Of a DNA stretch of 64,000 nt, positions 17,285 through 51,952 are shown piece by piece (position 1 is the stretch's first letter; each line of letters begins with the position of its first letter). This DNA is from an uncultured Actinomycetes bacterium. Its GTDB lineage: Bacteria > Actinomycetota > Thermoleophilia > UBA2241. The stretch is from assembly GCA_963755025.1 (NCBI GenBank), contig CAVWIH010000010.1, forward strand, positions 33,370-97,369. The letters are read 5' to 3'. The position numbers and the translations under genes are program-made. The notes under the pieces are model-generated. The model searched no databases, had not been told where the DNA came from, and worked only from the letters and a program-made list of their open reading frames with translations.

Positions 17285-17557
17285 CGCTCCGCGCGAGCAC
17301 CGCGGCCGCGTGCGCGGCCCCTCGGCCGCGGCCATGCGCCGCGGGCCGTGCGGTCCACCTCTGGTCGCCCGAGCTCCCGCTCGACGCGAGCGCCGTGGTT
17401 GCGCGACTCGCCGCCGAGGCGCGACAATGGGGCGACCGGCGACTTGCGTCGCGACCGCGCGCCAAGGCGCGGCCGGCGGCGCGCGCCGAAGCGCAGCCGA
17501 CGTTGATGATGGAACGCCCCCCACGGGCCGTTCGTGGTGACGAAGCGGAGTGATGCG

Positions 17558-26965: not shown

Positions 26966-28437
26966 GCGCCTGGGAGCCGGTCATCGGCCTCGAGGTCCAC
27001 GTCGAGCTCGACACCGCGACCAAGATGTTCTGCGGCTGCGCGGTGACCAAGGGCGACGAGCCCAACACGCACACCTGCCCGGTCTGCCTGGCCCACCCGG
27101 GGGCGCTGCCGGTGGTCAACGAGCGCGCCGTCGAGTACGCCGCGCGCATCGCGCTGGCCCTGGGCTGCACGGTGCGGCCGCGCAGCATCTTCCACCGCAA
27201 GAACTACTTCTATCCCGACCTGCCCAAGGCCTATCAGATCAGCCAGTACGACGAGCCCCTGGCCGTGGCCGGTTCGTTCGACTACTGGGTGGGCGAGCGC
27301 AAGCTCTCGTGTCGCATCAACCGGGTGCACATGGAAGAAGATGCCGCCAAGCTCATCCACGCGGGCGGCGAGGCCGGGCGCATCGCCGGCTCCGACTACT
27401 CCATGGTCGACTTCAACCGCGGCGGCACGCCGCTCATCGAGATCGTCGGCGAGCCCGACATTCCCTCGCCCGAAGCCGCCCGCGAGTTCCTGCAGCAGCT
27501 GCGCAACCTGGTCGTCGGCCTCGGCGTGAGCGAGTGCAACATGGAAGAAGGCCAGATCCGCTGGGACGCCAACCTGAGCGTGCGGCCGGCCGGCAGCACC
27601 GAGCTCGGCACGCGCACCGAGCTCAAGAACATGAACAGCTTCCGCTACCTGCAGCAGGCCCTCGAGGCCGAGTTCCCGCGCCAGGTCGCCGTGCTCGAAG
27701 CCGGCGGCGCCATCGGCCAGGAGACCCTGCACTTCGACCCCGAGACCGGCGTCACCACGCCGCTGCGCTCCAAAGAAGAGGCCCACGACTACCGCTACTT
27801 CCCCGAACCCGACCTCGTGCCGCTGACCACGAGCGAGGCCTGGATCGACGCCGTGCGCGCCGCGCTGCCCGAACTGCCCGCGGCCCGCGTCGAGCGCTTC
27901 AGCACCCAGTACGGGCTGTCGCGCTACGACGCCGCGGTGCTCGGTGGCGGGGCGGCCATGGCGGCCTTCTACGAAGAGCTCGTGGCCGAGGGCACCGACC
28001 CCAAGCTGGCCGCCAACTGGGCCATGGGCGAGTACTCGGCGCACCTGAACGCGGCCGGCCTCGAACCCGGCCACGGCCACGTGACCGCGCCGCGCCTGGC
28101 GGCCCTGCTGCGCCTCGTGACCGGCGGTCAGGTCTCCGGCACGGCCGCCAAGCAGGTCTTCGCCTACATGGTCGACGAGCGCGGCGAGCCGGCCGACATA
28201 GTGGCCCGCCACGACCTGGGCCAGGTCTCCGACTCGAGCGAGCTCGAAGCCGCCGTGGCGGCCGTGCTGGCCGCGCACCCCGCGCAGGTCGAGCAGTACC
28301 ACGCCGGCAAAGAGGCGCTGGCCGGCTTCTTCGTGGGCCAGGTCATGAAAGCGACGCAGGGCAAAGGCAACCCCCAGCTCGTCGGCGAGCTCGTGCGAGC
28401 GGCGCTCGCCGGCGACGAGCGTAAAGGACCGGCATGA
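26962..28437 (+). CDS. gatB: Asp/Glu-tRNA amidotransferase subunit B
   Basis: VIGLEVHVEL, RKNYFYPDLPKAYQISQ, HMEEDA, RSKEEAHDYRYFPEPDL, GFFVGQVMK. Confidence 0.96.
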   Translation: MSAWEPVIGLEVHVELDTATKMFCGCAVTKGDEPNTHTCPVCLAHPGALPVVNERAVEYAARIALALGCTVRPRSIFHRKNYFYPDLPKAYQISQYDEPLAVAGSFDYWVGERKLSCRINRVHMEEDAAKLIHAGGEAGRIAGSDYSMVDFNRGGTPLIEIVGEPDIPSPEAAREFLQQLRNLVVGLGVSECNMEEGQIRWDANLSVRPAGSTELGTRTELKNMNSFRYLQQALEAEFPRQVAVLEAGGAIGQETLHFDPETGVTTPLRSKEEAHDYRYFPEPDLVPLTTSEAWIDAVRAALPELPAARVERFSTQYGLSRYDAAVLGGGAAMAAFYEELVAEGTDPKLAANWAMGEYSAHLNAAGLEPGHGHVTAPRLAALLRLVTGGQVSGTAAKQVFAYMVDERGEPADIVARHDLGQVSDSSELEAAVAAVLAAHPAQVEQYHAGKEALAGFFVGQVMKATQGKGNPQLVGELVRAALAGDERKGPA

Positions 28438-29716
28438 GCGAGTTCCGCCCAGGCGATCTGTCGAGCTTCATCATCGCCGAAGAGGCGCCGGCCGAAGGCC
28501 CGCCGGTGCGCATCGACGACACCACCCTGCGCGACGGCGAGCAGACCGCCGGCGTCGTGTTCTCGAACCACGAGAAGATCCGCATAGCGCGCCTGCTGGG
28601 CGACGTCGGCGTGCACCAGATCGAGGTCGGCATCCCGGCCATGCTGGGCGACGAAAAGGCGGCCATCGCGCAGATCGTCGAGCTTGGTCTCAAGCCCTCG
28701 ATCCTCGCCTGGAACCGCGCCGTCATCTCCGACATCCAGCACTCCATCGACTGCGGCGTCGACGCCGTCGCCATCTCCATGTCGGCGAGCGACATCCACA
28801 TCGAGCACAAGCTGGCCAAATCGAGGCAGTGGGTGCTCGACCAGATCCGCGAGTGCGTGGCCTTCGCCAAAGAGGCCGGCGTGTACGTGTCGGTGAACGC
28901 CGAAGACGCCTCGCGCGCCGACCTCGAGTTTCTGCTGCGCTTCGGGCGGGCCGCCAAGAAGAGGGCGCCGACCGCCTGCGCTTCTGCGACACGCTGGGCA
29001 TTCTCGACCCCTTCGACACCTACAACGTGATCAGCTTCCTCACCCGCCAGGGCCTCGAGATCGAGATGCACACCCACGACGACTTCGGCATGGCCACGGC
29101 CAACGCCCTGGCCGGCATCAAGGCCGGCGCGACCTACGTGAACACCACGGTCAACGGCCTCGGCGAGCGCGCCGGCAACGCCGCCCTCGAAGAGGTCGTC
29201 ATGGCCCTCAAGTTCCTGGGCCACGTCGACCTGGGGCTGCACACCTCGCAGTTCCGCGAGCTGTGCGAGTACGTGGCCGCCGCCTCGGCGCGCTCGATCC
29301 CCTCGTGGAAGAGCATCGTGGGCACCAACGTCTTCGCCCACGAATCGGGCATCCACGCCGACGGCGTCATCAAGAACCCGCTCAACTACGAGGCTTACGC
29401 CCCCGAAGACGTGGGCCTCGAGCGGCAGATCGTGGTGGGCAAGCACTCGGGCTCGCGCACCATCTACCGCAAGTTCCAGGAGTTCGGCATCGAGCTCTCC
29501 GACCACGACGCCAGCGAGATCCTGAAGATGGTCCGCCAGACGGCGATCGAGCTCAAGCGCGCGCTGTTCTCCAAGGAGATCATGTACATCTACCAGGACT
29601 ACATCGCGAGTCTCGCCGCCGCCGCCGAAGCCGATGCCGCCGAGGCCCCCACTGCCGAGGCCCCCGCGGCCGCCGCCGGCGGCGCCGTCACGGCCACGCC
29701 GGCCGCCCGCGACTAG
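28434..29716 (+). CDS. Homocitrate synthase / Re-citrate synthase-like (DRE-TIM) enzyme (frameshift ~28960)
   Basis: DTTLRDGEQTAGV, EDASRAD, CDTLG, HTHDDFGMATAN, GLGERAGNAALEE, FAHESGIH; no LeuA regulatory domain. Confidence 0.85.
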
Positions 29717-32172: not shown

Positions 32173-33192
32173 ATGGCCTACAGGGTGACGCTCATTCCTG
32201 GCGACGGCACCGGCCCCGAGCTGGCCGCCGCCCTGGAGACGGTGATTGCCGCGAGCGGCGTGGCCGTCGAGTGGGAGCGCCACGACGCCGGCGCGGCCGT
32301 GCTCGCGCGCCGCGGTACGCCGCTGCCCGACGAGGTCATCGAGTCGGTGCGCGCCACGAAGGTGGCCATCAAGGGGCCGATCACCACGCCGGTGGGCTCG
32401 GGCTTTCGCTCGGTCAACGTGGCCCTGCGCGTGGCGCTCGACCTGTACGCCTGCCTGCGTCCGGCCAGGTCGCTTGTCGGCGTGCCCAGCCGCTTCGCCG
32501 GCGTCGACCTCGTGGTCGTGCGCGAGAACACCGAAGACCTCTACGCCGGCGTCGAGCACCAGGTCACTCCCGACGCCGCCGAGTCGATCAAGATCATCAC
32601 CCGGCGCGCCACCGAGCGCGTGGCGCGCTTCGCCTTCGACTACGCCCGCGCGCACGGGCGCCGCCGCGTCACCGCCGTGCACAAGGCCAACATCATGAAG
32701 CTCACCGACGGCCTGTTCCTGCGCGTGGCGGGCGAGGTGGCCGCCGGCTACCCCGACATCGCCTTCGACGACCGCATCGTCGACAACCTCTGCCAGCAGC
32801 TCGTCATGGCGCCCGAGCGCTTCGACGTGCTGCTCTGCCCCAACCTCTACGGCGACATCGTGAGCGACCTCTGCGCCGGCCTGATCGGCGGCCCCGGCGT
32901 TGCTCCCGGCGCCAATATCGGCGCCGGCTGCGCCGTGTTCGAGGCCGTGCACGGCAGCGGCCCCGACATCGCAGGCCGCGACATCGTCAACCCTACGGCC
33001 TTCCTGCTGTCGGGCGCCCTCATGCTCGAGCACCTGGGCGAGGGCGCGGCGGCCGGGCGCGTCTCCGACGCCGTGGCCGCCGTCATCGCCGAGGGCCGCC
33101 GCGTCACCCGTGACCTGGGCGGCACGGCCGGCACGCAGGAGTTCGCCCAGGCGGTGGCCGCACGCCTGCTGGCAGCCGCCGTCACCCCCTAA
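32173..33192 (+). CDS. Isocitrate/isopropylmalate dehydrogenase family, IDH-like
   Basis: [57 protein letters not shown]. Confidence 0.9.
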
Positions 33193-33203
33193 AGGAGTCC
33201 ACC

Positions 33204-33500
33204 GTGCCAATGGAACCAGACGAACGCCACTTCAACATCCACGCCACGCCCGAGATGATGGCCGGCGTCTACGCCAACTTCGCCAACGTCAGCCACTCCG
33301 ACTACGAGTTCTCCATCACCTTCATGCGCCTCGACCACGAGAACGAGACCGAAGAAGAGATCAACGGCGTCGTGGTGTCGCGCATCAACATGTCGGCGCG
33401 CTTCATGAAGGAGCTCATCGAGGCGATGAACGACAACTTCGGCAAGTGGCAGGCCGGCGAGAACATCCGCAACCTGCCCGAGGCGCCCGACCACGACTGA
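33204..33500 (+). CDS. DUF3467-like small protein
   Basis: GVYANFANVSHSDYEFSITF...VVSRINMS pattern; AAGGAG RBS. Confidence 0.75.
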   Translation: MPMEPDERHFNIHATPEMMAGVYANFANVSHSDYEFSITFMRLDHENETEEEINGVVVSRINMSARFMKELIEAMNDNFGKWQAGENIRNLPEAPDHD

Positions 33501-33569
33501 GCGCGCGGCGCGTCGGTACGCGTGCGGGGCCGGCTCCGTCCGGCGCCGCGCCGGGCACCCCTTCTCCTC

Positions 33570-33585
33570 TGGTACCATGAGAGCG
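33570..33585 (+). promoter_or_regulatory. Extended -10 promoter giving a leaderless nitroreductase-pylBCD transcript
   Basis: TG-G-TACCAT followed by exactly 6 nt and then the in-frame GTG at 33585. Confidence 0.55.
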
Positions 33586-34265
33586 TGATGATTCCCCCCG
33601 AGACCCTCGCCGGATTCGTGGCGGCCGTCGAAGGCCGCCACAGCGTGCGGCGCTTCACCGACGAGCCCGTGTCGCGCGTCGACGTGCGCGAGATGGTGCG
33701 CCTGGCGACGCTGTCGGCCAACGCCGGCAACGCCCAGCCGTGGCGCTTTGTGGCCGTCGACGACCGCGCGCTGCTCGAAGCCATGGGCGAGGCGGTCGGG
33801 GAGCGCATCGACGCCATGGCCGCCTGGCCCGAGGTCGAGGCGGCCGGCATGGCCCGCAAGACGAGCACCATGCGCGGCTACTCCACCTTCTTCGCCAACG
33901 CGCCGCTGGCGATCGCCGTGTGCGGGCTGCCTTACGAGTCGGCGAGCGACCGCGCGCTCGAGCTGCGCGGGGTGTCGCGAGACGAGCACGACAGGCTGCG
34001 CGCCCGTCCCGACGTGCAGAGCGTGGGCGGCGCCATACAGGTGCTGGTCACCGCGGCGTACGCCCTGGGCTACGGCGCCTGCTGGATGACCGCCCCCGTG
34101 CTGGCCGCCCCCGCCCTCGAAGAGCTGCTGGGCGTCGCCGAGCCCGCTCGCCTGATGGCGATCGTCGCCCTTGGCCGGCCCGCGGCCGAGGGCAAGCCGG
34201 CGCCGCGCCGCTCCCTCGGCGAGGTCCTGCGTTTCCTGCCGCCCGAACCCGACGAGGACTCATGA
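33585..34265 (+). CDS. Nitroreductase-family flavoprotein, translationally coupled to pylB
   Basis: RHSVRRF, SANAGNAQPWRF, APLAI, GYGACWM; ATGA overlap with pylB. Confidence 0.85.
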   Translation: MMIPPETLAGFVAAVEGRHSVRRFTDEPVSRVDVREMVRLATLSANAGNAQPWRFVAVDDRALLEAMGEAVGERIDAMAAWPEVEAAGMARKTSTMRGYSTFFANAPLAIAVCGLPYESASDRALELRGVSRDEHDRLRARPDVQSVGGAIQVLVTAAYALGYGACWMTAPVLAAPALEELLGVAEPARLMAIVALGRPAAEGKPAPRRSLGEVLRFLPPEPDEDS

Positions 34266-35419
34266 CGACCCCCAGCCACGCAGAGACCGGTCCGATCATC
34301 GCCCGCGCCCTGGCCGGCGAGACGCTCGCGACCGCCGAGATCGCGAGCCTGCTCGCGATCGACGACCCGGCCGCCGCGGCGCCGCTCTATGCCGCCGCCG
34401 CCGAACTGCGCCGCCGCCACTTCGGCGACGTCATCTTCTTGTACGGCTTTGTCTACTTCTCCACCTGGTGCCGCAACGACTGCACCTTCTGCCTCTACCG
34501 CCGGGCCAACGCCGAGAGTCCGCGCTACCGCAAGCCGCGCGACGAGATCGTCGAGGTGAGCGTGGGTCTGGCCGCGTCGGGCGCCCACCTGATCGACCTG
34601 ACCATGGGCGAGGACCCGCTGTACTTCGCCCGCGGCGAGTTCGACGCGCTTGTCGAGCTGGTCGACGCCGCCAAGAAGGCCACCGGGCTGCCCGTCATGG
34701 TGTCGCCGGGCGTGGTGCCGCGCGAGGTGCTGGCCGCGCTTGCCGGCGTGGGCGCCGAGTGGTACGCCTGCTATCAGGAGGTCCACGACCGCGCGGCGTA
34801 CGCGCTGTTGCGCACAGGGCAGGACTACGACGTGCGCTCTCAGGCGCGCGCCGACGCCGCCGACCTGGGGCTGCTCGTCGAAGACGGCATGCTGCTCGGC
34901 GTGGGCGAGACCGTCGCCCAGCGCGCCGTCACGGTGGCCGCCATGCGCGAGCAACGGCTCGCCCAGGTGCGCGCCATGACCTTCGTGCCGCAGCGCGGCA
35001 CGCCGCTCGCCCGGCGCACCCCCGCCGGTCGCATCGGCGAGCTCGTCACCATCGCCGTGCTGCGCCTGACCATGCCCGACCGCCTCATTCCCGCCTCGCT
35101 CGACGTCGACGGCATCGCCGGCCTCGAGTCGCGCATCGCCGCCGGCGCCAACGTGGTCACGTCGCTGGTGCCGCCTGACACCGGACTCGCCGGCGTGTCG
35201 CAGTCCGAGCTCGACATCGACGAGGGCCTGCGCACCGCTCCGGTGGTCACGCAGCGTCTCGAGACCGCCGGCCTGCGCGTGGCCACGGCGGCCGAGTACG
35301 CCGCCTGGGTCGCGAGCGCCCGCGAGCGCGCCGCCGTTGCAGCCGGCCCTTCGGCTGCCGGCCTGGCGTCCTCCGCGCCGGCTGCCGGGGCTCAGACGCC
35401 CGCCCCAAAACCCGCCTGA
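34262..35419 (+). CDS. pylB: Methylornithine synthase (radical SAM lysine mutase)
   Basis: LYGFVYFSTWCRNDCTFC (CxxxCxxC), DLTMGED, WYACYQE, RLIPASLDVDG, AGANVVTS, GLAGV; directly upstream of pylC/D/T. Confidence 0.93.
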   Translation: MTTPSHAETGPIIARALAGETLATAEIASLLAIDDPAAAAPLYAAAAELRRRHFGDVIFLYGFVYFSTWCRNDCTFCLYRRANAESPRYRKPRDEIVEVSVGLAASGAHLIDLTMGEDPLYFARGEFDALVELVDAAKKATGLPVMVSPGVVPREVLAALAGVGAEWYACYQEVHDRAAYALLRTGQDYDVRSQARADAADLGLLVEDGMLLGVGETVAQRAVTVAAMREQRLAQVRAMTFVPQRGTPLARRTPAGRIGELVTIAVLRLTMPDRLIPASLDVDGIAGLESRIAAGANVVTSLVPPDTGLAGVSQSELDIDEGLRTAPVVTQRLETAGLRVATAAEYAAWVASARERAAVAAGPSAAGLASSAPAAGAQTPAPKPA

Positions 35420-35464
35420 GGTGACCCGCATGAGAACGAGCGGCGCGGCGTGGGGAGGAGGGGC

Positions 35465-36659
35465 ATGAGGCTGGCGATCGTCGGCGGCAAGCTGCAGGGC
35501 ACCGAGGCCGCCTACCTGGCCGGCGAGGCCGGCTACGAGGTCGTGGTCATCGACCGCCGGGCCGGCCGCCCGGCGTCGGGCCTGGCCGCCGAGACCCACG
35601 TCTTCGACGTGACCGCCGACCCGGTGCGCACCCGCGAGCTGCTGCTCGGCTGCGACGCCGTGCTGCCGGCCTGCGAAGACGAAGCCACCCTCGAGTTTCT
35701 GAGCCTCGTTCGCGCCCGGGCTGGGCGTGCCGCTGCTCTTCGACTTCGACGCCTATCTGGTCACGCAGTCGAAGATCGCCTCGAACGAGCTCTTCGCGCG
35801 GCTCGACGTGCCGCGGCCGCGGCCGTGGCCGGCCTGTGGGCTGCCCGCGGTCGTCAAGCCGAGCGTGGGCAGCGGCAGCACCGGCGTTCGCCTGGTCGTG
35901 TCGGAGCCCGGCCTCGTGCTGGCTCGCGCGGCGCTGGCGGCCGAGGGCGAGCAGGCGGTGGTCGAGGAGTACGTCGCCGGGCCGTCGCTGTCGATCGAGG
36001 TGATCGCGCTCGGCGGTGAGGCGCTGACCCTGCTGCCGACCTTCCTCGAGTTCGACGCGGTCTACGACTGCAAGCGCGTCGTGGCGCCGGTCGAGCCCGT
36101 GGCGCCGGTGAGCGAGGCCACGATGACCGCGCTCGACGACGTGGCGCGCCGCCTGGCCGACGGCGTCAGCCTGAGTGGCGTCATGGACGTCGAGGTGATG
36201 GTGGCCGCCGACGGCACGCCCAAGGCGATCGAGATCGACGCCCGCCTGCCCAGCCAGACCCCGGCTGCGGTGTTCCACGCAAGCGGCGCCAACATCGTCG
36301 AGCTGCTCGTCGAGAGCTTCGCCGCCGGCCGCCCGCCGGCAGCGCCCACGCAGGCCTTGCGCGGCGCCGTCTACGAGCACGTCCTGGTCGACGACGGCCG
36401 CGTCGAGGTGCTCGGCGAACACATCGTGGGCGCGGCCGGCCCGCTGCGCCGCTGCGACGGGCTGTTCGGCGCCGACGTCGTGCTCACCGACCGTCCCGAC
36501 TCGGGCGCCGCGCAGGGCCGCTGGGTGGCCGTGCTCATGACGCGCGGCGCGACCGCGGCGGCGGCCCGCGGGCGGGCCGCCGCCGCGGTCGCGCGCCTCG
36601 CCTACGAGCACGGCCTCGAGCTCGTGACCGAGTCCGAGCCCACCTTGGCCACACAGTGA
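35465..36659 (+). CDS. pylC: 3-methylornithine--L-lysine ligase (ATP-grasp; frameshift ~35705)
   Basis: IVGGKLQGTEAAYLA, FDFDAY, VKPS-GSGS, EEYVAGPSLSIEV, YDCKRV, GVMDVEV, EIDARLPSQTP, YEH, GEHI. Confidence 0.92.
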
Positions 36660-36702
36660 CCCGTCCGGGCGCAGGGCCGCGTCGCGATCCGTCTGAGCGG
36701 GT

Positions 36703-37662
36703 GTGGCCTGGTTTGACCCGGTCGAGCGGGCGCGCCGCGCCGTGACCCGCCTCGTCGAAAGCGACGTGCGCGTACTGACCGCGCACCTCGACGAGGTCGA
36801 GGGAGCGCTGCTGCGCCTCACCGGCTGCGACTTCGTGACGCTCGCCGCCAGGGCGTGCGGCGTGAGCGAGGGCGTCGCGCGCGACGCCCTCGCTCACGCC
36901 GCCGTGGCCGTCGTGCCCATCACGAGCGGCGAGGGCGTCATCGCCGGCTTCGTCGACTGCGTGGCGGCGATCTGCGCGCGGCTGGGCTGCCGCGCGGCGC
37001 GCGTCACCGGGGCGACCGACGTCGCCGGCTTCGCCGAAGCCTTCGCCGGCGGCGACGATCTGGTCTTCGCCGCCGACGACCGCCACTTCCTGGCCTTCGA
37101 CCTGCGCAGCCGCGCCGTGGCCGACGACGACCCCTGCACCGCCTACGCCTACGCGGCCGCCCTCGATGCCGCGGCAGCTCGGAGCGGCTCGACGGGGACC
37201 GGCGGCGCCGACGCCGCGACCGGCGCCGGCGCGTCAAGCGACGTCGCGCCCGACTCTGTCGCCGGCGTGGCCGGCAAGCCCGTCCTGGTGCTCGGCCTCG
37301 GCCCCGTGGGGCGCGCGGCCGCCGCGCGCTTAGTCGCGCTGGGCGCCGAGGTGCTCGTCTGCGAGCCCGACGAGGCGCGTCTGGCGGCAGTCACCGCGGC
37401 GCTGCCGGTCTCCCCCGTCACGCTGGCCGACGGCCTGTCGCGCAGCCGCCTCGTGCTCGATGCCACACCGACTCCCGACTTGATCGACGAGGACTGGCCG
37501 GGCGGCGACGGCATCGTCTGCTCTCCGGGCCTGCCGCCCGGCGTCACGGCTGCGGCCGCCCGCGTGCTGGGCGAGCGCCTCGTGCACGAGCCGCTCGCCC
37601 TGGGCGTGGCCGTGATGGCGGTGCAGGCCCTCACCGGGAACTCCGGCCCGGCGGGCCGGTGA
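36703..37662 (+). CDS. pylD: 3-methylornithyl-N6-L-lysine dehydrogenase (start may be GTG 36742)
   Basis: VVPITSGEGVIAGF, TDVAG, ADDRHFLA, Rossmann GLGPVG, DATP, PGLP, EPLALGVAVM. Confidence 0.9.
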   Translation: MAWFDPVERARRAVTRLVESDVRVLTAHLDEVEGALLRLTGCDFVTLAARACGVSEGVARDALAHAAVAVVPITSGEGVIAGFVDCVAAICARLGCRAARVTGATDVAGFAEAFAGGDDLVFAADDRHFLAFDLRSRAVADDDPCTAYAYAAALDAAAARSGSTGTGGADAATGAGASSDVAPDSVAGVAGKPVLVLGLGPVGRAAAARLVALGAEVLVCEPDEARLAAVTAALPVSPVTLADGLSRSRLVLDATPTPDLIDEDWPGGDGIVCSPGLPPGVTAAAARVLGERLVHEPLALGVAVMAVQALTGNSGPAGR

Positions 37663-37686
37663 CGCGCTTGCACAGGGGCGCCCGTT

Positions 37687-37715
37687 TTGCCGGACGCGCG
37701 CCGATGCGCTAGCCT
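37687..37715 (+). promoter_or_regulatory. Sigma70-type promoter for pylT
   Basis: TTGCCG-17 nt-TAGCCT, ending 11 nt before the tRNA 5' end. Confidence 0.5.
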
Positions 37716-37726
37716 AGAGGCGGCGC

Positions 37727-37799
37727 GGGGGGTCGATCGGAAGGATCAGCGTGGACTCTAAATCCACGTAGAGGGGTGTAACTCCCCTACTCCCCGCCA
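37727..37799 (+). tRNA. pylT: tRNA-Pyl (anticodon CUA, amber-decoding)
   Basis: GGGGGGT/ACTCCCC acceptor stem plus GCCA; GATC-GGAAG-GATC D-arm with 5-nt loop; 6-bp anticodon stem CGTGGA-CTCTAAA-TCCACG (CTA at 37758-37760); 3-nt variable loop; T-loop TGTAACT without TTC. These are the known tRNA-Pyl hallmarks. Confidence 0.96.
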
Positions 37800-37933
37800 G
37801 TGAGACTCCCCCGCACTGAGCGGACCTGCAGGTCAGGCCAGGCCGAGGCCTTCGGCATCGGATAGACGCCCCGAGCGGCGGCAGGCGGCTCGTCCCGCCG
37901 GCGTCGTGCCGGGAGCGCCGCGCCCCCCGCCTT

Positions 37934-37949
37934 TGCTACACTCCTTACA
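37934..37949 (+). promoter_or_regulatory. Extended -10 promoter, leaderless pylSn
   Basis: TG-C-TACACT, then 6 nt, then ATG; no Shine-Dalgarno sequence. Confidence 0.55.
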
Positions 37950-38287
37950 TGCCGACCGATCCCACCAAAGCCGTCTATTACCGCAAGCAGGTGCCGCTCT
38001 TCCGCCTGGTCGAGAAGATGAAGCTCTGGCCGTCGCGGCGCGGCCTGCTGCACGGCATCAAGGAGTTCGAGGTGCTGGGAACGCGGGCGCGCCTCACCAC
38101 GCACTGCGGCAAGGTCATGATCGTGCGCGATTCAAAGACGAGCCGCTCGGCGCGCTGGCTGCGCAACAAGCTGTTCTTCGAGGCCTGTCCGCAGTGCCGC
38201 ATACCCGATTGGAAGCTGCAGAAGTACGCCGCCACCACCTTCAAGCGCGGCTACGGCTCGTACCTGCGCGACGAAGGGCCGCGCTAG
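37949..38287 (+). CDS. pylSn: Pyrrolysyl-tRNA synthetase N-terminal (tRNA-binding) subunit
   Basis: KMKLWPSRRGLLHGIK, TTHCG, DSKTSRSARWLRNK, CPQCRIPDWKL; adjacent to pylT. Confidence 0.93.
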   Translation: MPTDPTKAVYYRKQVPLFRLVEKMKLWPSRRGLLHGIKEFEVLGTRARLTTHCGKVMIVRDSKTSRSARWLRNKLFFEACPQCRIPDWKLQKYAATTFKRGYGSYLRDEGPR

Positions 38288-38357
38288 CGCTCCCCTCGCG
38301 TACGACGCTGCGGCCGCGCTGCCGTGCGGTGCGCGGCAGACCCGCGAGCGCCCTGCG

Positions 38358-38828
38358 CTAGCCGCCGATCCCGTAGTCGACGTCGCGGCCGAGACCGCGA
38401 TCTGAGCGCGACCAACGGTCGATGTCGAAGGCGAACGGCCCGCTGCGGTGGTCTATGCCGACCGCGCTCGCGAGGGGCGCCGGCAGGCGCCCCACCCGAC
38501 CGAGCAACGACTCGTTGAAATCGCCGACCTCGAGGAACAGCGCCACGAGCTCGACGCGCCCCGAGTAGCCGGCTTCGCGAGCCAGCCGGGCGATCGCCCG
38601 GCAGTCGAAGCGGTCGCTGCAGTGGGCGCCGGGTTCGAGCAGGAACGGGTAGGCAAGGCGGGGCGGAGCGGAGCGTATGCGCAAGCCGAGCGGCAGGACG
38701 ACGGCGCAGCCGACGATCTCGATCGCCTTGGCGTCGAGGTTGCGAGCCATGACCTGAAGCGCATCGGTGGCGGCGCCGGCGGCGCCGACGGGCCGAACGT
38801 GAGCGACCTGCACTTCGAGCCTGCGCAC
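38358..38828 (-). CDS. Hypothetical protein
   Basis: 156-aa ORF with a GGGAGG RBS before GTG, filling the gap between pylSn and the radical SAM gene; no motif recognised. Confidence 0.5.
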   Translation of the reverse strand: MRRLEVQVAHVRPVGAAGAATDALQVMARNLDAKAIEIVGCAVVLPLGLRIRSAPPRLAYPFLLEPGAHCSDRFDCRAIARLAREAGYSGRVELVALFLEVGDFNESLLGRVGRLPAPLASAVGIDHRSGPFAFDIDRWSRSDRGLGRDVDYGIGG

Positions 38829-38886
38829 CTGGGACCTCCCCCCGGTGGTCTACTTGAGCGACCCTGCGCGACGCACGTTCCTTACA

Positions 38887-39765
38887 CTACAGCAGCCGCA
38901 ACCCCTCTGGCTTGAATCGTATCTGTTGCGGCGTCGTCAGCACGCCGTCGAGGGCGGCCAGCACGGCCTGCTTGTCGTGCGGCAGCCGGCCGCCGACGGG
39001 CAGGTAGTTCGAGGCGTGGTTGGAGCGGAACACGGCGTCGGTCACGGTGGTGGCGGCGACGATGGTGCGCAGCTCGCGCAGCATGGCGAGGGCGTCGGGC
39101 ACGACGAACTCGCCGCGCGCCACCCGCGCCGCCAGGCGCGTGCCGGACACGACCATGAGGCTGAGGATGCCGATGTACCGGGGGTCGATGGCCGACAGGG
39201 CCGCTCCGGTGGCCGCGGCGTGCACGAGCGAGCGCTGCGCGCCGGCCACGCCGAGGATCGCCGTGATCGACAGCTCGAGGCCGGCCGCCGTCGCCTTGGC
39301 GCAGCCCTCGATCTGCTGGGCGACCGTGACGCCCTTGTGGATGGCCGCCAGGGTCTGGTCGTCGCCCGACTCGAGGCCCAGGTAGAGCAGTTCGAGGCCG
39401 GCGGCGCGCACGGCGCACAGGTCGTCGGCGCTCTTGGCGAGCAGGTTGTGGGCGTTGGCGTAACAGCTCACCCGCTCGAGCGCCGGCAGCTCGCGGTGCA
39501 GCAGCTCGAGCACGTCGAGCAGCCGCCGGCGCGACAGCGCCAGGGCGTCGCCGTCGGCCAAAAAGACGCGCCGCACGCGTTCTTTGACGGCGACCGGAAG
39601 GCCGGTGAGGTCGGCGGCGACTTCGTCGGCCGGACGCAGCGCGAAGGGTTTGTCGAGGTAGGTCGCGCAGAAGTCGCACGAGGCGTTGGAGCAGCCGTAG
39701 GTCACCTGCACGATCAGGCTCGAGGCTTCGCTCGGAGGCCGGATGACGGCGCCGTGGTACCGCAT
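38887..39765 (-). CDS. Radical SAM protein (uncharacterised, CxxxxCxxC type)
   Basis: IRPPSEASSLIVQVTYGCSNASCDFC, FLADGDAL, YLGLESGDD, FRSNHASNYL; leaderless TG-A-TACACT-N6-ATG. Confidence 0.88.
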   Translation of the reverse strand: MRYHGAVIRPPSEASSLIVQVTYGCSNASCDFCATYLDKPFALRPADEVAADLTGLPVAVKERVRRVFLADGDALALSRRRLLDVLELLHRELPALERVSCYANAHNLLAKSADDLCAVRAAGLELLYLGLESGDDQTLAAIHKGVTVAQQIEGCAKATAAGLELSITAILGVAGAQRSLVHAAATGAALSAIDPRYIGILSLMVVSGTRLAARVARGEFVVPDALAMLRELRTIVAATTVTDAVFRSNHASNYLPVGGRLPHDKQAVLAALDGVLTTPQQIRFKPEGLRLL

Positions 39766-39968
39766 ATTTGCAGTGTATCAAGTCGTCCGCGGCGTGTGGC
39801 CGTCGGTGCGCCGGCGGCGGCGGTTTGCGCGTGAGCCGTCCTGTATACTTGTGCGCGACGCCGGGCAGCCCTCCATGGCTCCACGGCTGGTGAGGGCGCT
39901 GGTCGCAGGTTCACAAGCTTGCGACGCGCGAGTGGACGGCACGAACGTTTGAGGAGGAGTTGCCCAAC

Positions 39969-40610
39969 ATGGCCAACCGAGACGAGCTCATCCAAGAGGC
40001 GATCGACTCGATCGTCAACTACGACGCGGCGGCCGCCCACGACGTGGCCACCCGCGCCCTGGCCGCCGGCATCGCCCCCGGCGACATCATCAACCAGGGT
40101 TTTGTGGTCGGCATCTCCCAGGTCGGCGACGCCTTCGAAGGCGGCGAGGTCTTCCTGCCCGAGCTCATGCTGGCCGCCCAGGCCATGGACGCCGCCACCA
40201 AGGTCTGCAACGCGGCGCTTGAGGGCGGCCAGGCCGAGAAGAAGGGCGTCGTGGTCGTGGGCACCGTGCAGGGCGACGTGCACGACATCGGCAAGGCGAT
40301 CGTCATCGCCTACTTGAAGGCCCACGGCTATGAGGTCACCGACTGCGGCCGCGACACCCCGGCCGAGACCTTCATCGCCAAGGCCAAGGAGCTGCACGCC
40401 GACATCATCGGCATGAGCGCCCTGCTGACCACCACCATGGAAGAGCAGCGCCGCGTCATCAAGATGATCAAAGACGAGAGCCTGCCCTTCAAGACCGTGG
40501 TGGGCGGCGCCCCCTGCACGCAGCGCTGGGCCGACCAGATCGGCGCCGACGCCTACGCCGAAGACGCCTCCGACGGCGTCAAGAAGATCGACGCCCTGCT
40601 CGGCAGGTAG
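39969..40610 (+). CDS. Methyltransferase cognate corrinoid protein (MttC/MtbC/MtmC-like)
   Basis: FEGGEVFLPELM cap domain, GTVQGDVHDIGK (DxHxxG), GMSALLTTT, VVGGAP, IGADAYAEDA. Confidence 0.92.
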   Translation: MANRDELIQEAIDSIVNYDAAAAHDVATRALAAGIAPGDIINQGFVVGISQVGDAFEGGEVFLPELMLAAQAMDAATKVCNAALEGGQAEKKGVVVVGTVQGDVHDIGKAIVIAYLKAHGYEVTDCGRDTPAETFIAKAKELHADIIGMSALLTTTMEEQRRVIKMIKDESLPFKTVVGGAPCTQRWADQIGADAYAEDASDGVKKIDALLGR

Positions 40611-40700
40611 CAGGCCGCCAGGCCGCACCTGTCGCCCCGGCTGACAAGGCGGGGCCACGGCAGGCGGTCGCGCAGACGCACACGAACACGAGACCGTCAC

Positions 40701-40744
40701 GAGCGGGCGGGGCGCCGGCAGGCGCCCCGCCCGCTCTTCGTTTC
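40701..40744 (+). terminator. Intrinsic terminator after the corrinoid gene
   Basis: 16-bp stem GAGCGGGCGGGGCGCC-ggca-GGCGCCCCGCCCGCTC followed by TTCGTTT. Confidence 0.7.
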
Positions 40745-40842
40745 GCCCTCGAACGGGAAGCTCGCGAACAACGAGAAGCGTGTGAACGACGGAGGTGCTC
40801 ACGCCATCCGCGTGAAGGGCCGCCGGCGCCGCGCCGTCTGAC

Positions 40843-41433
40843 CTAGCAGCGCGGCTTGCCGTGCGCGGCTTCGCCGCGACACGCCTGCAGGCCGCCTTCG
40901 ACCTTGCGCAGCAGCCTGAGAAGCTCGGCGCGCTCGGCTGTATCGAGCGACTTCACCGTCTGGGCCTCGAGCTCGCTCCACAGGGCGGTCACGGCGTCTT
41001 GCAGGCCGCGCCCCGCCGGCGTGAGGGTGACGATCACGACGCGCCGGTCGCTGGGCGAAGGCGCGCGGCGCACCCAGCCATCGCGTTCGAGGCGTTGCAG
41101 CATCTTGGTCACGGTCGAGGCGTCGAGCCCCAGGCGCTCGACGAGGTCGGCCTGCGAGCAGCGGTCGCGGTCCCAGAGCTGCAGGAGCAGCAGCTCCTGG
41201 CCGGGCGCCAGGCCGAGCTCACGCAGCAGGCCGCCGACGATCGTCTTGTGCATGCGCGACAGGCGAAAGACGGCGTGCACGGTGGGTCCGGTGCGCTCGG
41301 CCAGGGACGTGCTGCGCGGCCAGTGCTCGCAGGTCAGCGCCCGGGCGCGGTCGTCGACCGGCTCGCCGGTGCTGTCGGCCGCGTGGGGCCTGCCTCTGCC
41401 GCTTGTGACGTCGGTGTCGGTCATCGCGCTCAC
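40843..41433 (-). CDS. MarR family transcriptional regulator
   Basis: LGLDASTVTKMLQRLERDGWVRR...DRRVVIVTLTPAG. Confidence 0.9.
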   Translation of the reverse strand: MSAMTDTDVTSGRGRPHAADSTGEPVDDRARALTCEHWPRSTSLAERTGPTVHAVFRLSRMHKTIVGGLLRELGLAPGQELLLLQLWDRDRCSQADLVERLGLDASTVTKMLQRLERDGWVRRAPSPSDRRVVIVTLTPAGRGLQDAVTALWSELEAQTVKSLDTAERAELLRLLRKVEGGLQACRGEAAHGKPRC

Positions 41434-41445
41434 TGTCTACCCGAA

Positions 41446-41492
41446 TGTTTGGTCAGCCAACTATCGCGGGTAAGTAGTTGCGCGACCAACTA
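41446..41492. promoter_or_regulatory. Two putative MarR operator palindromes between divergent marR and yceI
   Basis: TGTTTG-N6-CAACTA (41446-41463) and the perfect TAGTTG-N6-CAACTA (41475-41492). Confidence 0.6.
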
Positions 41493-41515
41493 TTTCGTTG
41501 TAAAGGAGCCGTCCG

Positions 41516-42073
41516 ATGGCCTGGACCACAGATCAGCAGCACTCCCAGTTCGAGTTCGCCGTGCGCCACATGGTCGTCTCGACCGTGCGCGGGCACTTCG
41601 CCGAGTTCGCGATCGACGCCGACATCGACGAGACCGACCTCACCAGGTCGACCGGCGCCGTCGCGGTGAAGACCGCCAGCATCAGCACGCGCGAGGCGCA
41701 GCGCGACGCTCACCTGGCGTCGCCCGACTTCTTCGACGCCGAGAAGTTCCCCGAGCTCACCTACGTCGTCAAGAAGATCGCCGGCGGCGACGGGCAGTAC
41801 ACGATCACCGGCGACCTCACCATCAAGGACGTCACGCGCGAGGTCGTGCTCGACGCCGAGATCTCGGGCCCCGTAGCCGACCCGTGGGGTAACAGCAGGA
41901 TCGGCCTGTCGGCCACCGGCAAGATCAATCGCAAAGACTTCGGTCTGGGCTGGAACGTGGTCACCGAGGCCGGCGGCCTGCTGGTGGGCGACGACGTGAA
42001 GCTGAGCATCGACGCCGAGTTCGTGAAGGCACAGGAGACCGCCGAGGTCGCGGGCGCCGCCGCGTCGGCCTGA
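41516..42073 (+). CDS. YceI family protein
   Basis: HSQFEFAVRHMVVSTVRGHF, RDAHLASPDFFDAEKFP, GDLTIKDVT, INRKDFGL. Confidence 0.93.
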   Translation: MAWTTDQQHSQFEFAVRHMVVSTVRGHFAEFAIDADIDETDLTRSTGAVAVKTASISTREAQRDAHLASPDFFDAEKFPELTYVVKKIAGGDGQYTITGDLTIKDVTREVVLDAEISGPVADPWGNSRIGLSATGKINRKDFGLGWNVVTEAGGLLVGDDVKLSIDAEFVKAQETAEVAGAAASA

Positions 42074-42115
42074 GGCAGGGCGAGAGACAGGCGCAGCGCA
42101 CGGGCGCGAGCGCAA

Positions 42116-42148
42116 GCGGGCGGGTGAGGCAGAGCCTCACCCGCCCGC
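42116..42148. terminator. 15-bp hairpin between convergent yceI and pylSc
   Basis: GCGGGCGGGTGAGGC-aga-GCCTCACCCGCCCGC. Confidence 0.6.
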
Positions 42149-42158
42149 CCGTCGTGTG

Positions 42159-43007
42159 TCAGGAGAGCTGCAGCCTGACGCCGTCGAGGTAGCTCAGACT
42201 GCGACCGACACGCTCTATGCCGGCCAGGCCGCCGCTCGCCACGAGCAGGCGTTCGAGCCCGAAGCCGAGGCCCACCCAGGGGTCGGTGATCGCCCAGGCG
42301 TCGTCGAGCGGGTGCGGGCCGAGGGCGGTCGAGCAGACCTCGAGGCCGCCGACCACCACGTCGAGCTCGTCGCCGTACACCTCGGAGCTCTTCAGGACGA
42401 ACTCGTAGCCGCTCACGCCGGCGGCCTCGAGGACGACGACGGCCAGCTCGCGCAGGCGGTCGTCGCGCCGTGCGAGCGGCGTGCCGAGCTCGACCAGGTT
42501 GAGCATGGTGAACTCGTTCAGGTGTCTGGCGCCCTTGGTGTCGCGGCGAAAGCACGAGCCCATCTCGTAGATGCCGAAGGGCATCTTCCAGGTGCGCGAC
42601 AGGCGGCGCATGACGGTGTAGAGGTTGGGCGCGAGCATGGGGCGCAGGGCGCGGTCGGAGTCGAGCCGAAAGACCTGCTCGCCCATCTCGCTGTGGGGCT
42701 CGACGCCCATCTTGCGCAGCGCGTCGCCGCTCACGATCGTGGGCGTGACCACCTCGACCAGGCCGGCCGCGGCGAGCGCCGCGCGCAGCGACTCCTCGAG
42801 ACGGCGCAGCGCGGGCACGCGCGGCCCCGCGCGCAGCTCGTCGAGCGCCGCCCGCCCCGCGCCGGTGAGCTCGGTCGACAGGCGGCGGAAGGCGTCGTCG
42901 CGCTCGCCTGCGTCGGCGAAGGTCCGGCCGGTCGCGGCGGTGTCGGCGCCCAGCTCGTACAGGCGCTGGAGCTGCGTCGCGGTAAAGGCGGAGGGGCCGG
43001 GAGTCAC
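42159..43007 (-). CDS. pylSc: Pyrrolysyl-tRNA synthetase catalytic subunit
   Basis: TQLQRLYEL, VEVVTPTI, LRPMLAPNLY, motif 2 CFRRD...HLNEFTMLNLVE, SEVYG, motif 3 PWVGLGFGLERL, RSLSYLDGVRL. Matches the bacterial (Desulfitobacterium-type) PylSc layout. Confidence 0.95.
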   Translation of the reverse strand: MTPGPSAFTATQLQRLYELGADTAATGRTFADAGERDDAFRRLSTELTGAGRAALDELRAGPRVPALRRLEESLRAALAAAGLVEVVTPTIVSGDALRKMGVEPHSEMGEQVFRLDSDRALRPMLAPNLYTVMRRLSRTWKMPFGIYEMGSCFRRDTKGARHLNEFTMLNLVELGTPLARRDDRLRELAVVVLEAAGVSGYEFVLKSSEVYGDELDVVVGGLEVCSTALGPHPLDDAWAITDPWVGLGFGLERLLVASGGLAGIERVGRSLSYLDGVRLQLS

Positions 43008-43025
43008 GAGCGGGGCGCCGTCGCC

Positions 43026-44105
43026 CTAGGCGCGGGCCAGGTAGCGCGTGAAGCCGCCGACCACGGCGCCCGCCAGCCGTTCGACGTAGTCGGGGCGGCC
43101 CGCGCGGGCGTCGTCGTCGGGGTTCGTGAGAAAGAGCGGCTCGACCATGACGGCGATCGCCGTGGGTTCGCGCAGCACGGCGAAGTTGCGGCCCACGCTG
43201 CCGATGAAGCCGGCGCCGCCCAGGCGCCCGACCTCGGTCCCGATGTAGTCGGACAGGCGCGCGCCGTGCTCTGAGTAGTAGTGGCTGCGCTGAAAGAAGT
43301 AGCCCACGGCGCCGGCGGCGGCGGGGCTCTGGTCGCCGTTGAAGTGCAGGCTGACGAGGTAGTCGGCGGCGGCCGCTTCGACTGCGTCGGTGCGGTCGTA
43401 GAGCGGCACCGCCCTGTCGGTCTCGCGGGTCAAGGCCACTCGGCTGCCCTCGGCGCGCAGCAGCTCGGCGAGGCGCAGGCCGACGGCCAGCGTGAGGTCC
43501 TTTTCGGCGCGCCCCGTGGGCGAGATCACGCCGGTATCGGGCCCGCCGTGGCCCGGGTCGATGGCCACGACCACGCCGGTGAGGCTGGCCACCGGGGCGA
43601 AGCCCTCGTCGCGGTCGGGGATCTTCTTGCCCTCGCGACCGGTCTCGGCCTTGCGCAGCGCTTCGAGCTTGCGCAGGGTGTCGTCGCCCACGATGCCGTC
43701 GGCCTGCAGCCCGGCGTTGCGCTGAAAGTCGATCAGGGCGCGTTCGACCGCCGTGTCGAAGATGCCGCGCTCGGGCCCGGCGTTGAAGCCGAACAGGTTG
43801 AGCTTGACCTGCAGGGCGAGCACGTCGTCGCCGCGAAAGTTGGGCATGCGCAGGTAGAGCAGCCGGTCGCCGAGCGCGTAGCCGGCTTCGACCAGCTCAC
43901 GCCAGGTGTTGGCGCCCAGCACGCCGTCGGCGAGCAGGCCGCGCTCCTGCTGAAAGGCGCGCAGGGCGAGCTGGCTGCGCGGCCCCAGAAAGCCGTCGAG
44001 GCCTTCGTTGCCGAGCTCGTAGCCGAGCGCGTGCAGCCGTTGCTGCACGTCGGTGACTTCTTTGCCGCGATCGCCGAGGGTCAGTGTGCGCATGAGGGTC
44101 GTCAC
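43026..44105 (-). CDS. CwlM-like N-acetylmuramoyl-L-alanine amidase (2 peptidoglycan-binding domains plus Amidase_3)
   Basis: Two LQ..L...G...DG.FG...AL..FQ...GL..DG repeats; IDPGHGG, EK, SLHFN, VMVEP; no signal peptide. Confidence 0.88.
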   Translation of the reverse strand: MTTLMRTLTLGDRGKEVTDVQQRLHALGYELGNEGLDGFLGPRSQLALRAFQQERGLLADGVLGANTWRELVEAGYALGDRLLYLRMPNFRGDDVLALQVKLNLFGFNAGPERGIFDTAVERALIDFQRNAGLQADGIVGDDTLRKLEALRKAETGREGKKIPDRDEGFAPVASLTGVVVAIDPGHGGPDTGVISPTGRAEKDLTLAVGLRLAELLRAEGSRVALTRETDRAVPLYDRTDAVEAAAADYLVSLHFNGDQSPAAAGAVGYFFQRSHYYSEHGARLSDYIGTEVGRLGGAGFIGSVGRNFAVLREPTAIAVMVEPLFLTNPDDDARAGRPDYVERLAGAVVGGFTRYLARA

Positions 44106-44148
44106 TTTCGTCTACGCCGCGCCTGGTTCGCTCAAACCGAGCCGCCAA

Positions 44149-44157
44149 AGTATAGCA
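44149..44157 (-). promoter_or_regulatory. Extended -10 promoter for amidase(-pylSc)
   Basis: TG-C-TATACT on the minus strand ~45 nt upstream of the amidase start. Confidence 0.5.
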
Positions 44158-44300
44158 ACAGCAACAGGGCCCGCCGGCCGGTGCCGCCGGTCCGGGCGCG
44201 CGCCGCCGCGGTCGCATCCGCTCACGACGGGGCGCGCGCCGCCGCTCGGCTCGCGCCGCCCAGTGCCGGGCTCGCGCGGCCGCGCGAGCCCGCGCCTGCC

Positions 44301-45149
44301 TCAGATCCCCGTGGCGTGCCGCAGGCCGGTGGCGATCACGATCAGCAGCGCGGTCGCCACGATCAGGCGATAGGCGACGAAGATGGCGAAGGTGTGGGTG
44401 CGCAGGTAGCCGAGCACGAACCAGATGGCCGCCAGGCCGCTCAGCGCGGCGGCCACCATGCCCACCAGGAAGGGCTGCGCCATGTGGGGCGGCATGCCGT
44501 CTTTGACGAGCTGGGCGGTCTTGAGCAGCGCCGCGCCGCCCACGACGGGCACCGACAGCAGGAACGAGTAGCGCGCGGTCGACTCGCGGTCGAGCCCCAG
44601 GAAGAGGCCGGTGACCATGGTGACCCCCGAACGCGACACGCCCGGCGCCAGCGCGACGGCCTGCGCTACGCCGATGCCGAGCGCTCCGGGCCAGCGCAGG
44701 TCGTCCATCGACTTGTTGAGCTTGGCCGTCATGTCGGCCGCCATCATGACCAGGGCGAAGGCGAACAGCATGATGCAGATGAGGTAGGGCTTGCCGAGCT
44801 GGTCGGTGATGAAGTTCTCGAGGAGCACGCCGACGATCCCCGCCGGTACCGTGCTGATGAGCAGCAGCCAGGCGATGCGCTCGTTCTGGGTCTCGATGCG
44901 GCGACGGCGCAGGCTGCGCAGCCAGGCCCGCACGATCACCACGATGTCGCGCCAGAAGTAGACCAGGGCGGCGACGAAGGTGCCCAGGTGCAGGGCCACG
45001 TCGAAGGTCTTGTTGAGGGCCGGGTTGTTCTGGAAGAAGTGCCAGCCGAACAGCCAGGGCACCAGGATGAGGTGACCCGAGCTCGAGATCGGCAGGAACT
45101 CGGTGAGGCCCTGGACGATGCCGAGGATCAACGCCTGCAGGATACTCAT
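44301..45149 (-). CDS. uppP: Undecaprenyl-diphosphate phosphatase
   Basis: LGIVQGLTEFLPISSSGHL, LHLGT, ALAPGVSRSG, ARYSFLLS. Confidence 0.95.
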   Translation of the reverse strand: MSILQALILGIVQGLTEFLPISSSGHLILVPWLFGWHFFQNNPALNKTFDVALHLGTFVAALVYFWRDIVVIVRAWLRSLRRRRIETQNERIAWLLLISTVPAGIVGVLLENFITDQLGKPYLICIMLFAFALVMMAADMTAKLNKSMDDLRWPGALGIGVAQAVALAPGVSRSGVTMVTGLFLGLDRESTARYSFLLSVPVVGGAALLKTAQLVKDGMPPHMAQPFLVGMVAAALSGLAAIWFVLGYLRTHTFAIFVAYRLIVATALLIVIATGLRHATGI

Positions 45150-45412
45150 GAGCGTGGCGGCGAGAGCCGGCGGTCGCGGTCGGTCATGGCGCGCAGTCTC
45201 CTCGGTCGGTCGTTCAAGAGTCGTCGGCGTCGCGTGCGGCTCGCCGGCCGCGAGAGCGTGCATGAAGACGTCGGCTCGCCGCGGATGCTGGCAGTCTAGC
45301 GCACCGCGGCGGCGACCCGGTAGCGCCCGGCCGCCGGATTGCCACTGTCTCGAGCGTTGTTTGCTGCGCGCCGTTTCCAGTACGATGAGCACTCCAAGTG
45401 AGGGGGACGTTC

Positions 45413-46108
45413 GTGGATCAGCAACACAGGCTCACAGCCGTCCTTGCCGACGGCACCCGCTACGGCATCTACCGGTCGATCGTCGAGCGACCCGGCGACG
45501 AGGTCACCGTGGCCAGCGTGGCCACGCGCTTCGCGCTGCACCCCAACGTCGCCCGCATGCACCTGACCAAGCTCGAGCGCGCCGGCCTGCTCGCCACCTC
45601 GCTGCGCAAGGACGGCTCGGGTGGACGCCCCGCCCGCCTCTACCGCCTGAGCGACCAGGTCTCCACGCTCACCATGCCGCCGCGGCGGTACGACCTGCTC
45701 TCCGACCTCGCCCTCAAGGCGCTGGCCGCGACCGGCGACCTCGAGACCGTGGCCGCCGTGTGCCGCACCACCGGCGCCGCCGCCGCTCGCACCTACGTCG
45801 CCGACCACCCCGAGTTTCGCCACCCCGGGCGCGACGAGCTCGTCAGGGCCATGCTCGACGTGGGCGAAGAGGTCGGCATGCTGCCCGAGATGGAGTGGGA
45901 CGAATCGACGCTCGCCCTCGACGTGCGCAACTGCGCCTTCAAAGAGCTCTCGACGGCGCAGCCCGACCTGGTCTGCGTCATGCACCGCGCTTTTCTCGAG
46001 GGGTTCATAGAGCAGCTCGCCGCCGCCGGCAGCGCGGTCGCCATTCAGGCCTCTTCGGCCATCAGCCGGGGTGCCGACCGCTGCCACATGCGCGTCGTCT
46101 TCGGCTGA
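45413..46108 (+). CDS. ArsR-like HTH transcriptional regulator with Cys-containing C-terminal domain
   Basis: LHPNVARMHLTKLERAGLL...GGRPARLY; RNCAF, LVCVMH, C-terminal RC. Confidence 0.8.
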   Translation: MDQQHRLTAVLADGTRYGIYRSIVERPGDEVTVASVATRFALHPNVARMHLTKLERAGLLATSLRKDGSGGRPARLYRLSDQVSTLTMPPRRYDLLSDLALKALAATGDLETVAAVCRTTGAAAARTYVADHPEFRHPGRDELVRAMLDVGEEVGMLPEMEWDESTLALDVRNCAFKELSTAQPDLVCVMHRAFLEGFIEQLAAAGSAVAIQASSAISRGADRCHMRVVFG

Positions 46109-50351: not shown

Positions 50352-50365
50352 GTCGGCGCGACCCC

Positions 50366-51846: not shown

Positions 51847-51952
51847 TGTTCTGCCCGGGTCGCGGGACGGTGCCTTGCAGTCTACCACTCGAGCCTCCCG
51901 AGGGCGCGGCGGTGGTAGACTCGAACGACGGTCCGACGGTAACGACAAGGTG

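Follow-up and report, generated by a model that had tools for sequence, protein, structure and literature searches.

A stretch of 64,000 nucleotides of contig CAVWIH010000010.1 (positions 33,370 to 97,369; hereafter the window), from an uncultured actinobacterium, carries a genuine six-part gene set for the synthesis and insertion of pyrrolysine (Pyl), the 22nd genetically encoded amino acid. The set consists of pylB, pylC and pylD, the tRNA gene pylT, and pylSn and pylSc, which encode the two subunits of a split pyrrolysyl-tRNA synthetase (PylRS). Judged from sequence, this is in all likelihood a resident, working, bacterial-type pyrrolysine system of a family of the Thermoleophilia, and a break in pylC as assembled is most likely an assembly error.

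Protein genes were called by NCBIfam equivalog models (TIGR identifiers) with the models' own cut-offs, and tRNA genes by ARAGORN (Table 1). The presence of five curated equivalog models and a covarying tRNA inside 8.7 kb is far from chance. Both pylB and pylD score above cut-off and each occupies one open frame. The ATG of pylB at 34262 overlaps the TGA of the upstream nitroreductase gene, and the radical SAM motif CRNDCTFC is present in its product. PylSn has His, Cys and CxxC residues that we take to bind zinc. These residues are in register with those of the N-terminal domain of M. mazei PylRS (5ud5), which PylSn matches at E 3.7e-13. The best solved relatives of PylSc are the D. hafniense PylSc structures 3dsq and 2zni, with an end-to-end alignment at E 7e-86, and the predicted synthetase is an ordinary Desulfitobacterium-type split PylRS. 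A preliminary description of this DNA had placed the six components, including a CUA tRNA-Pyl, exactly where the NCBIfam models and ARAGORN find them. It had also called the system complete. All six parts were indeed located, but the description overlooked the pylC frameshift, so that as assembled the system is not literally complete.

ARAGORN reported two tRNAs in the window, one of which is tRNA-Pyl. The 73-nt pylT gene folds into a cloverleaf of -33.5 kcal/mol. Its acceptor stem of 7 bp is separated from the D stem by a single base, the D-loop is 5 nt long, the anticodon stem is long at 6-7 bp and the variable loop is short; G73 is present and the CCA is encoded. We aligned the window copy with 19 copies from related loci, giving 20 Thermoleophilia copies with 10 distinct sequences. 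Among the distinct sequences, 98.7% of cells pair and five pairs change on both sides, and the covariation score exceeds that of all 500 shuffles. An additional base 5' of the anticodon stem sets the actinobacterial tRNA-Pyl apart from most of the aligned tRNAs of other phyla. The base after the extra one forms a seventh anticodon-stem pair in all 10 distinct sequences (GU in five, GC in four and AU in one). No Rfam family matched at E 0.1 or better across 33000-44500. We attribute this to a failure of the general tRNA model to score a tRNA as atypical as this one, and do not regard it as casting doubt on the pylT gene.

Methyltransferase genes and a probable double use of UAG

The genome to which the window belongs has six full-length mtbB (dimethylamine methyltransferase) genes with one internal TAG each, and all six TAGs stand in one alignment column (DGL-X-VG). 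The MttB (trimethylamine methyltransferase) family is represented by 34 match segments, five of which are full-length genes with one internal TAG. These TAGs also share one column (5/5; AG[AL]-X), at which the non-Pyl paralogues have V, G or A. No mtmB was found in the 84%-complete genome. The eleven methyltransferase genes with a conserved in-frame TAG column indicate that the pyl system is in use. In four of the eleven, TAG is both the putative internal Pyl site and the gene's own terminator (contigs C11:13507-16429, C16:23860-25281 and C14:392337-393638 of the window's own genome, G000).

In the mechanism that we propose, PylB, PylC and PylD would make pyrrolysine from two lysines, and the split synthetase would charge tRNA-Pyl(CUA), with PylSn holding the tRNA and PylSc catalysing the reaction. 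The charged tRNA would read one in-frame UAG per gene in the approximately 11 mtbB and mttB genes. Methyl groups would then pass to corrinoid proteins, kept active by RamA-type activases, and on to tetrahydrofolate (THF) one-carbon (C1) metabolism. Two RACo/RamA-type activases are encoded elsewhere in the genome, and genes for formate-THF ligase, cyclodeaminase and FolD are present in the window. Because no CdhC/acetyl-CoA synthase was found in the genome, whose 84% completeness means that its absence is not thereby shown, oxidation of the methyl groups via tetrahydrofolate is something that we infer and not a result. The C1/tetrahydrofolate genes form a cluster at 13833-20073 (+), which also encodes NuoE/NuoF-like subunits. 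Within this cluster, the stop of the cyclodeaminase gene is the TAG at 16373-16375, and FolD comes next in the same frame.

To what extent UAG remains a stop was examined across the genome. Release factor 1 (RF1, prfA) is present (446.9 bits, above cut-off). A census of 1790 open reading frames (ORFs) of at least 200 codons with a coding GC pattern gave 1055 TGA, 590 TAG (33%) and 145 TAA stops. TAG was the stop in 17/52 cases in a genome of the same family that lacks PylSc, and in 25/114 in a genome of another family. Back-up stops were not enriched after TAG, the median next in-frame stop being 67 codons away after TAG compared to 54 after TGA. In-frame coding signal past the stop was seen for 40/590 TAG, 11/145 TAA and 26/1055 TGA stops, with no excess of TAG over TAA; this post-stop scan was a rough one, and it missed some of the known Pyl genes.

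These counts bear on whether TAG might stand for pyrrolysine throughout the genome, a code known from reports on some archaea. In favour of such a code are the eleven genes that require UAG as Pyl, four of which also end in TAG. Because RF1 is kept, TAG is a common stop and coding signal after TAG is not in excess, an all-TAG code is already contradicted by the present results and is hardly credible. The share of TAG stops, moreover, is the same in the family member without PylSc and similar in the other family. Instead, UAG is a frequent stop and, by prediction, also a Pyl codon in the same cell. With UAG still a normal stop for RF1, the insertion of Pyl would have to be either conditional or in competition with termination. 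For how read-through might be limited, the layout of the pyl genes in two units and a nearby MarR gene, both described below, are leads only.

The interruption of pylC

The first part of pylC, at 35465-35719, corresponds to positions 2-81 of the TIGR03909 profile (67.1 bits). The second part, at 35727-36659 in the next frame, corresponds to positions 88-370 (244.3 bits, just below the cut-off of 248.3). Together the two pieces span the profile almost end to end. By comparison with two genomes of the same genus in which pylC is intact (G004 and G002), the frame is shifted by a single additional C in GAGCCTCG at 35704/35705. In all 11 other genomes of the genus, pylC is in one frame. We also compared Logan contigs of four metagenome runs (X1-X4) over 35300-36100. 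The extra C was absent from all three contigs that cover the site (runs X1, X3 and X4, from three studies), and no contig carried the extra base. According to their labels, the runs that contain part of the stretch are metagenomes of soil, peat, freshwater and wetland.

Two unrelated genes of the window are split as well. An HMGL-like synthase gene at 28349-29716 (+) matches its profile over positions 2-157 in one frame and over 152-259 in a second frame. An Orn/Lys/Arg decarboxylase gene at 49716-51881 (-) is likewise divided between two reading frames. Like pylC, these split genes suggest single-base indels in the assembly. Taken together, the intact pylC of the same genus, the contigs without the base and the other split genes make an assembly indel the likeliest cause of the extra C, and a highly probable one. 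A programmed frameshift in pylC was rejected, as the relatives have no shift site. Frame-split pylC copies were seen in two relatives: a second pylC copy in a genome of the same genus (G007, C13:62888-63971), and the pylC of a genome of the same family (G012, C157:3755-4751), which lies in two frames.

Several points weigh against an assembly error and against a working system. The only pylC in the 84%-complete assembly is the broken one. The contigs without the extra C are only 95-99% alike to the window and may come from other strains. No same-strain read spans the site, and run X2, with contigs at least 99% alike, has no cover at 35705-35785. Elsewhere in the genome, a number of mttB and mtbB copies are fragmented over two or three frames. 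MttB-/MtbB-family genes in three pieces lie at C28:92683-94059, C22:10508-11940, C10:34-1332 and C11:17976-19225. With two breaks each, such split methyltransferase genes fit pseudogenes as well as errors. Finally, rpoC is in one frame and gives no sign of widespread indels, but it is a piece at a contig end and is uninformative. As a second indel test rpoB was likewise uninformative, since it is not in the assembly.

Much of this would be expected if the pyl system were decaying in this strain. The pylC frameshift would then be real, Pyl would no longer be made (or would be scavenged), and the TAG-bearing methyltransferase genes would be becoming pseudogenes. Loss of the system does occur, as PylSc is missing in 7 of the 79 sampled members of the family. 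In contrast, the other pyl genes and the 11 TAG-bearing methyltransferase genes are otherwise open, and the lesion in pylC is a single base. The unbroken pylC of the covering contigs and of the other genomes of the genus, together with the splitting of window genes that have nothing to do with pyrrolysine, also argues against decay, which we regard as unlikely. An assembly indel in an otherwise working pyl system thus remains the preferred reading.

Residence, layout and neighbouring genes

The window is part of contig C10 of a 3.37-Mb metagenome-assembled genome (MAG) of 39 contigs, estimated to be 84% complete and 5% contaminated, with approximately 70% GC. The closest public loci are titled as uncultured Thermoleophilia, Actinomycetes or Actinomycetota MAGs. 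At one of them, L025, PylSc is 95% identical and the flanking amidase and YceI proteins 94%. On the titles of the nearest records and on genome kinship groups, the host belongs to the class Thermoleophilia of the Actinomycetota, in agreement with the preliminary description, which had called it actinobacterial.

PylSc was found above cut-off in all 11 other genomes of the genus, in 12 of 13 other genomes of the family and, outside the family, in 1 of 16 genomes from elsewhere in the class. In a sample of 400 genomes of the class, it was present in 72 of 79 members of the host's family (f1), 9 of 61 members of a second family (f4) and none of 260 genomes of ten other families. A sample of 400 genomes of the phylum contained a single PylSc, in a member of f4.

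We compared the layout of the 80 best PylSc loci, of which 36 are actinobacterial-type and 44 from other phyla. The row BacA-amidase-pylSc, headed by the BacA gene, is present in all 36 actinobacterial-type loci. In 25 of the 36, pylSn is on the strand opposite pylSc, most of the others being cut short, and a tRNA scan of 30 loci placed pylT on that same strand in 19. Read in the direction of pylSc, the shared order is BacA, amidase and pylSc, then the corrinoid gene in reverse and the radical SAM gene forward, followed in reverse by pylSn, pylT, pylD, pylC, pylB and the nitroreductase gene. In the 44 loci of other phyla, the pyl genes found share the strand of pylSc. A quick IQ-TREE analysis of PylSc (81 rows) placed the 37 actinobacterial-type rows in one clade with an SH-aLRT of 98; the analysis included no outgroup and did not resolve the deeper branches. 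One locus in this clade, L057, lies on a contig of a MAG titled 'candidate division Zixibacteria'. Its layout, amidase-pylSc ... pylSn-pylT-pylDCB, is of the actinobacterial type, its PylSc falls within the Thermoleophilia clade, and the bin is probably mislabelled or mis-binned.

A foreign origin of the region, by recent horizontal arrival or through a chimeric or mis-binned contig, would be in keeping with the patchiness of PylSc across phyla, with relatives in MAGs titled Dehalococcoidales, Aminicenantes, Spirochaetes, Bacillota and Deltaproteobacteria, and with the estimated contamination of the MAG. However, GC is 0.70-0.75 across the region, like the rest of the window, and GC at third codon positions (GC3) of the pyl genes is 0.88-0.96, like that of the neighbouring genes. 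The invariant BacA-amidase row around pylSc, the monophyly of the actinobacterial PylSc clade and the presence of PylSc in all 11 other genomes of the genus also argue against a foreign origin, which is very improbable. Collectively, GC, GC3 and layout indicate that the pyl system is resident and not chimeric. The preliminary description had likewise held it to be long-resident and matched to the GC-rich codon style of its host, and the family-wide distribution, conserved layout and single PylSc clade bear this out.

Table 1. Features of the pyl region, with window coordinates, strand and supporting evidence
Feature	Position	Strand	Evidence or remark
Nitroreductase-family gene	33522..34265	+	Pfam PF00881, E 9.7e-30
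pylB, methylornithine synthase (radical SAM), 385 aa	34262..35419	+	TIGR03910, 421.7 bits (cut-off 348.2)
pylC, 3-methylornithine--lysine ligase, frame-split	35465..36659	+	TIGR03909, in two frames
pylD, 3-methylornithyl-N6-lysine dehydrogenase	36703..37662	+	TIGR03911, 173 bits (cut-off 150.05)
pylT, tRNA-Pyl(CUA)	37727..37799	+	ARAGORN
pylSn, PylRS tRNA-binding small subunit, 112 aa	37949..38287	+	TIGR03912, 125.8 bits (cut-off 51.15)
Radical SAM protein without B12-binding domain, 292 aa	38887..39765	-	PF04055
Methyltransferase-cognate corrinoid protein (MtbC-like)	39960..40610	+	TIGR02370, 213.4 bits; NF041607 MtbC, 212.5 bits
Terminator-like hairpin, perfect, 16 bp, GC-rich, then T-rich tail	40701..40736	.	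Between corrinoid gene and marR
MarR-family regulator	40843..41433	-	NCBIfam MarR-type matches
YceI-family protein	41516..42073	+	NF002994, E 1.2e-35
pylSc, PylRS catalytic subunit (class II), 282 aa	42159..43007	-	TIGR02367, 277.6 bits (cut-off 178.15)
N-acetylmuramoyl-L-alanine amidase with peptidoglycan-binding repeats	43026..44105	-	18 nt upstream of pylSc, same strand
BacA/UppP undecaprenyl-diphosphatase	44301..45392	-	PF02673, E 1e-81

Several neighbours of the pyl genes recur in related loci. The nitroreductase gene is a conserved upstream neighbour of pylB, found there also in loci L037 and L045. The radical SAM protein encoded between pylSn and pylSc weakly resembles B12-radical SAM enzymes in their radical SAM half. 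Its gene is conserved inside actinobacterial pyl loci, with 66-80% identity in related loci, and among the 80 best loci no relative was found in the pyl loci of other phyla. It stands head to head with the corrinoid gene, whose translation contains the motif DVHDIGK, and this pair is conserved in actinobacterial pyl loci. The MarR and YceI genes are additions that, among the same 80 loci, were found only in the window, L025 and L026. An ORF at 38358-38828 (-) was not counted as a gene, having no family match and no relative in any compared locus. No sigma-70 consensus promoter was found in 33000-45600, although this consensus says little for a high-GC actinobacterium.

The two-unit layout also allows a more elaborate reading, which we consider doubtful. 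UAG would be truly two-valued throughout the Thermoleophilia family, and Pyl decoding would be controlled in two modules, with pylSc tied to the BacA-amidase envelope operon and pylBCD-pylT-pylSn forming a separate, switchable unit. Suppression could then occur only during methylamine use. This reading cites the third of all genes that end in TAG without a nearby back-up stop. It also holds that the seventh anticodon-stem pair may mark a distinct class of tRNA-Pyl, and that such a class could show orthogonality to the pairs currently employed for genetic-code expansion.

Comparison with known systems

If the system works as proposed, pyrrolysine use is a family-wide trait of an actinobacterial lineage common in soil, peat and wetland. 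Approximately 11 putatively Pyl-dependent tri- and dimethylamine methyltransferase genes in one genome are relevant to the question of which organisms there consume methylamines, precursors of methane. The lineage would also offer a natural case of UAG as both a frequent stop and a sense codon in one cell. Genetic-code engineering gains a further split PylRS/tRNA pair, whose tRNA differs slightly; the machinery as such is not new. The preliminary description had proposed this pair as a candidate new orthogonal one; its predicted enzyme is of the ordinary Desulfitobacterium split type.

The preliminary description had noted that split PylSn/PylSc systems are best documented in anaerobic Firmicutes and Deltaproteobacteria. 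Pyrrolysine in Actinobacteria is already in print. Of the 81 bacterial genomes with PylRS counted in the accessible parts of Guo et al. 2022 (PMC9630628), two are from Actinobacteria, and the supplement lists PylSc of 'Thermoleophilia_bacterium' and 'Actinobacteria_bacterium_ADurb.BinA094'. A 2025 review (PMC11764691), in the part available, repeats the count of two. Actinobacteriota MAGs expressing Pyl-encoding mttB and mtbB are described in the available text of Ellenbogen et al. 2023 (PMC10805028). As far as these sources go, the window shares with their entries the phylum and class label, the split type and the presumed use of tri- and dimethylamine methyltransferases. In the supplement of Guo et al. 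as available, the cells for PylSn identifier and sequence are empty for both actinobacterial entries; in the window, pylSn, pylT and pylBCD are all located. The only item pairing 'pyrrolysine' with 'Thermoleophilia' in the literature as indexed was a soil geochemistry survey, judged irrelevant from its visible portion.

An archaeal code that reads all TAG as Pyl (Kivenson et al. 2025, as cited in the accessible part of PMC13695967) resembles the window's genome in combining Pyl machinery with many TAG-containing genes. Unlike that code, the window's genome keeps RF1 and uses TAG as a common stop.

The closest likeness is to the split PylSn and PylSc system of the D. hafniense type (PDB 3dsq, 2zni), which has the same six parts. 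The window PylSc keeps the LRPMLAPNLY, HLNEFTMLN and DPWVGLGFGLERLL stretches of D. hafniense PylSc, PylSn is likewise a separate gene, and the tRNA has the CUA anticodon, G73, a 5-nt D-loop and a long anticodon stem. The differences are those of lineage and arrangement. The window genome has approximately 70% GC, and the window tRNA has the extra base 5' of the anticodon stem with its seventh pair. In the window, pylB, pylC, pylD, pylT and pylSn are on one strand, and pylSc lies 3.9 kb off on the other strand, behind a cell-wall amidase gene. In contrast, the loci of Desulfosporosinus, Acetobacterium and other non-actinobacterial hosts are co-linear on one strand. Together, these comparisons place the window system as an ordinary, sparsely described member of the bacterial split-PylRS systems, with a gene order typical of its lineage and a slightly unusual tRNA.

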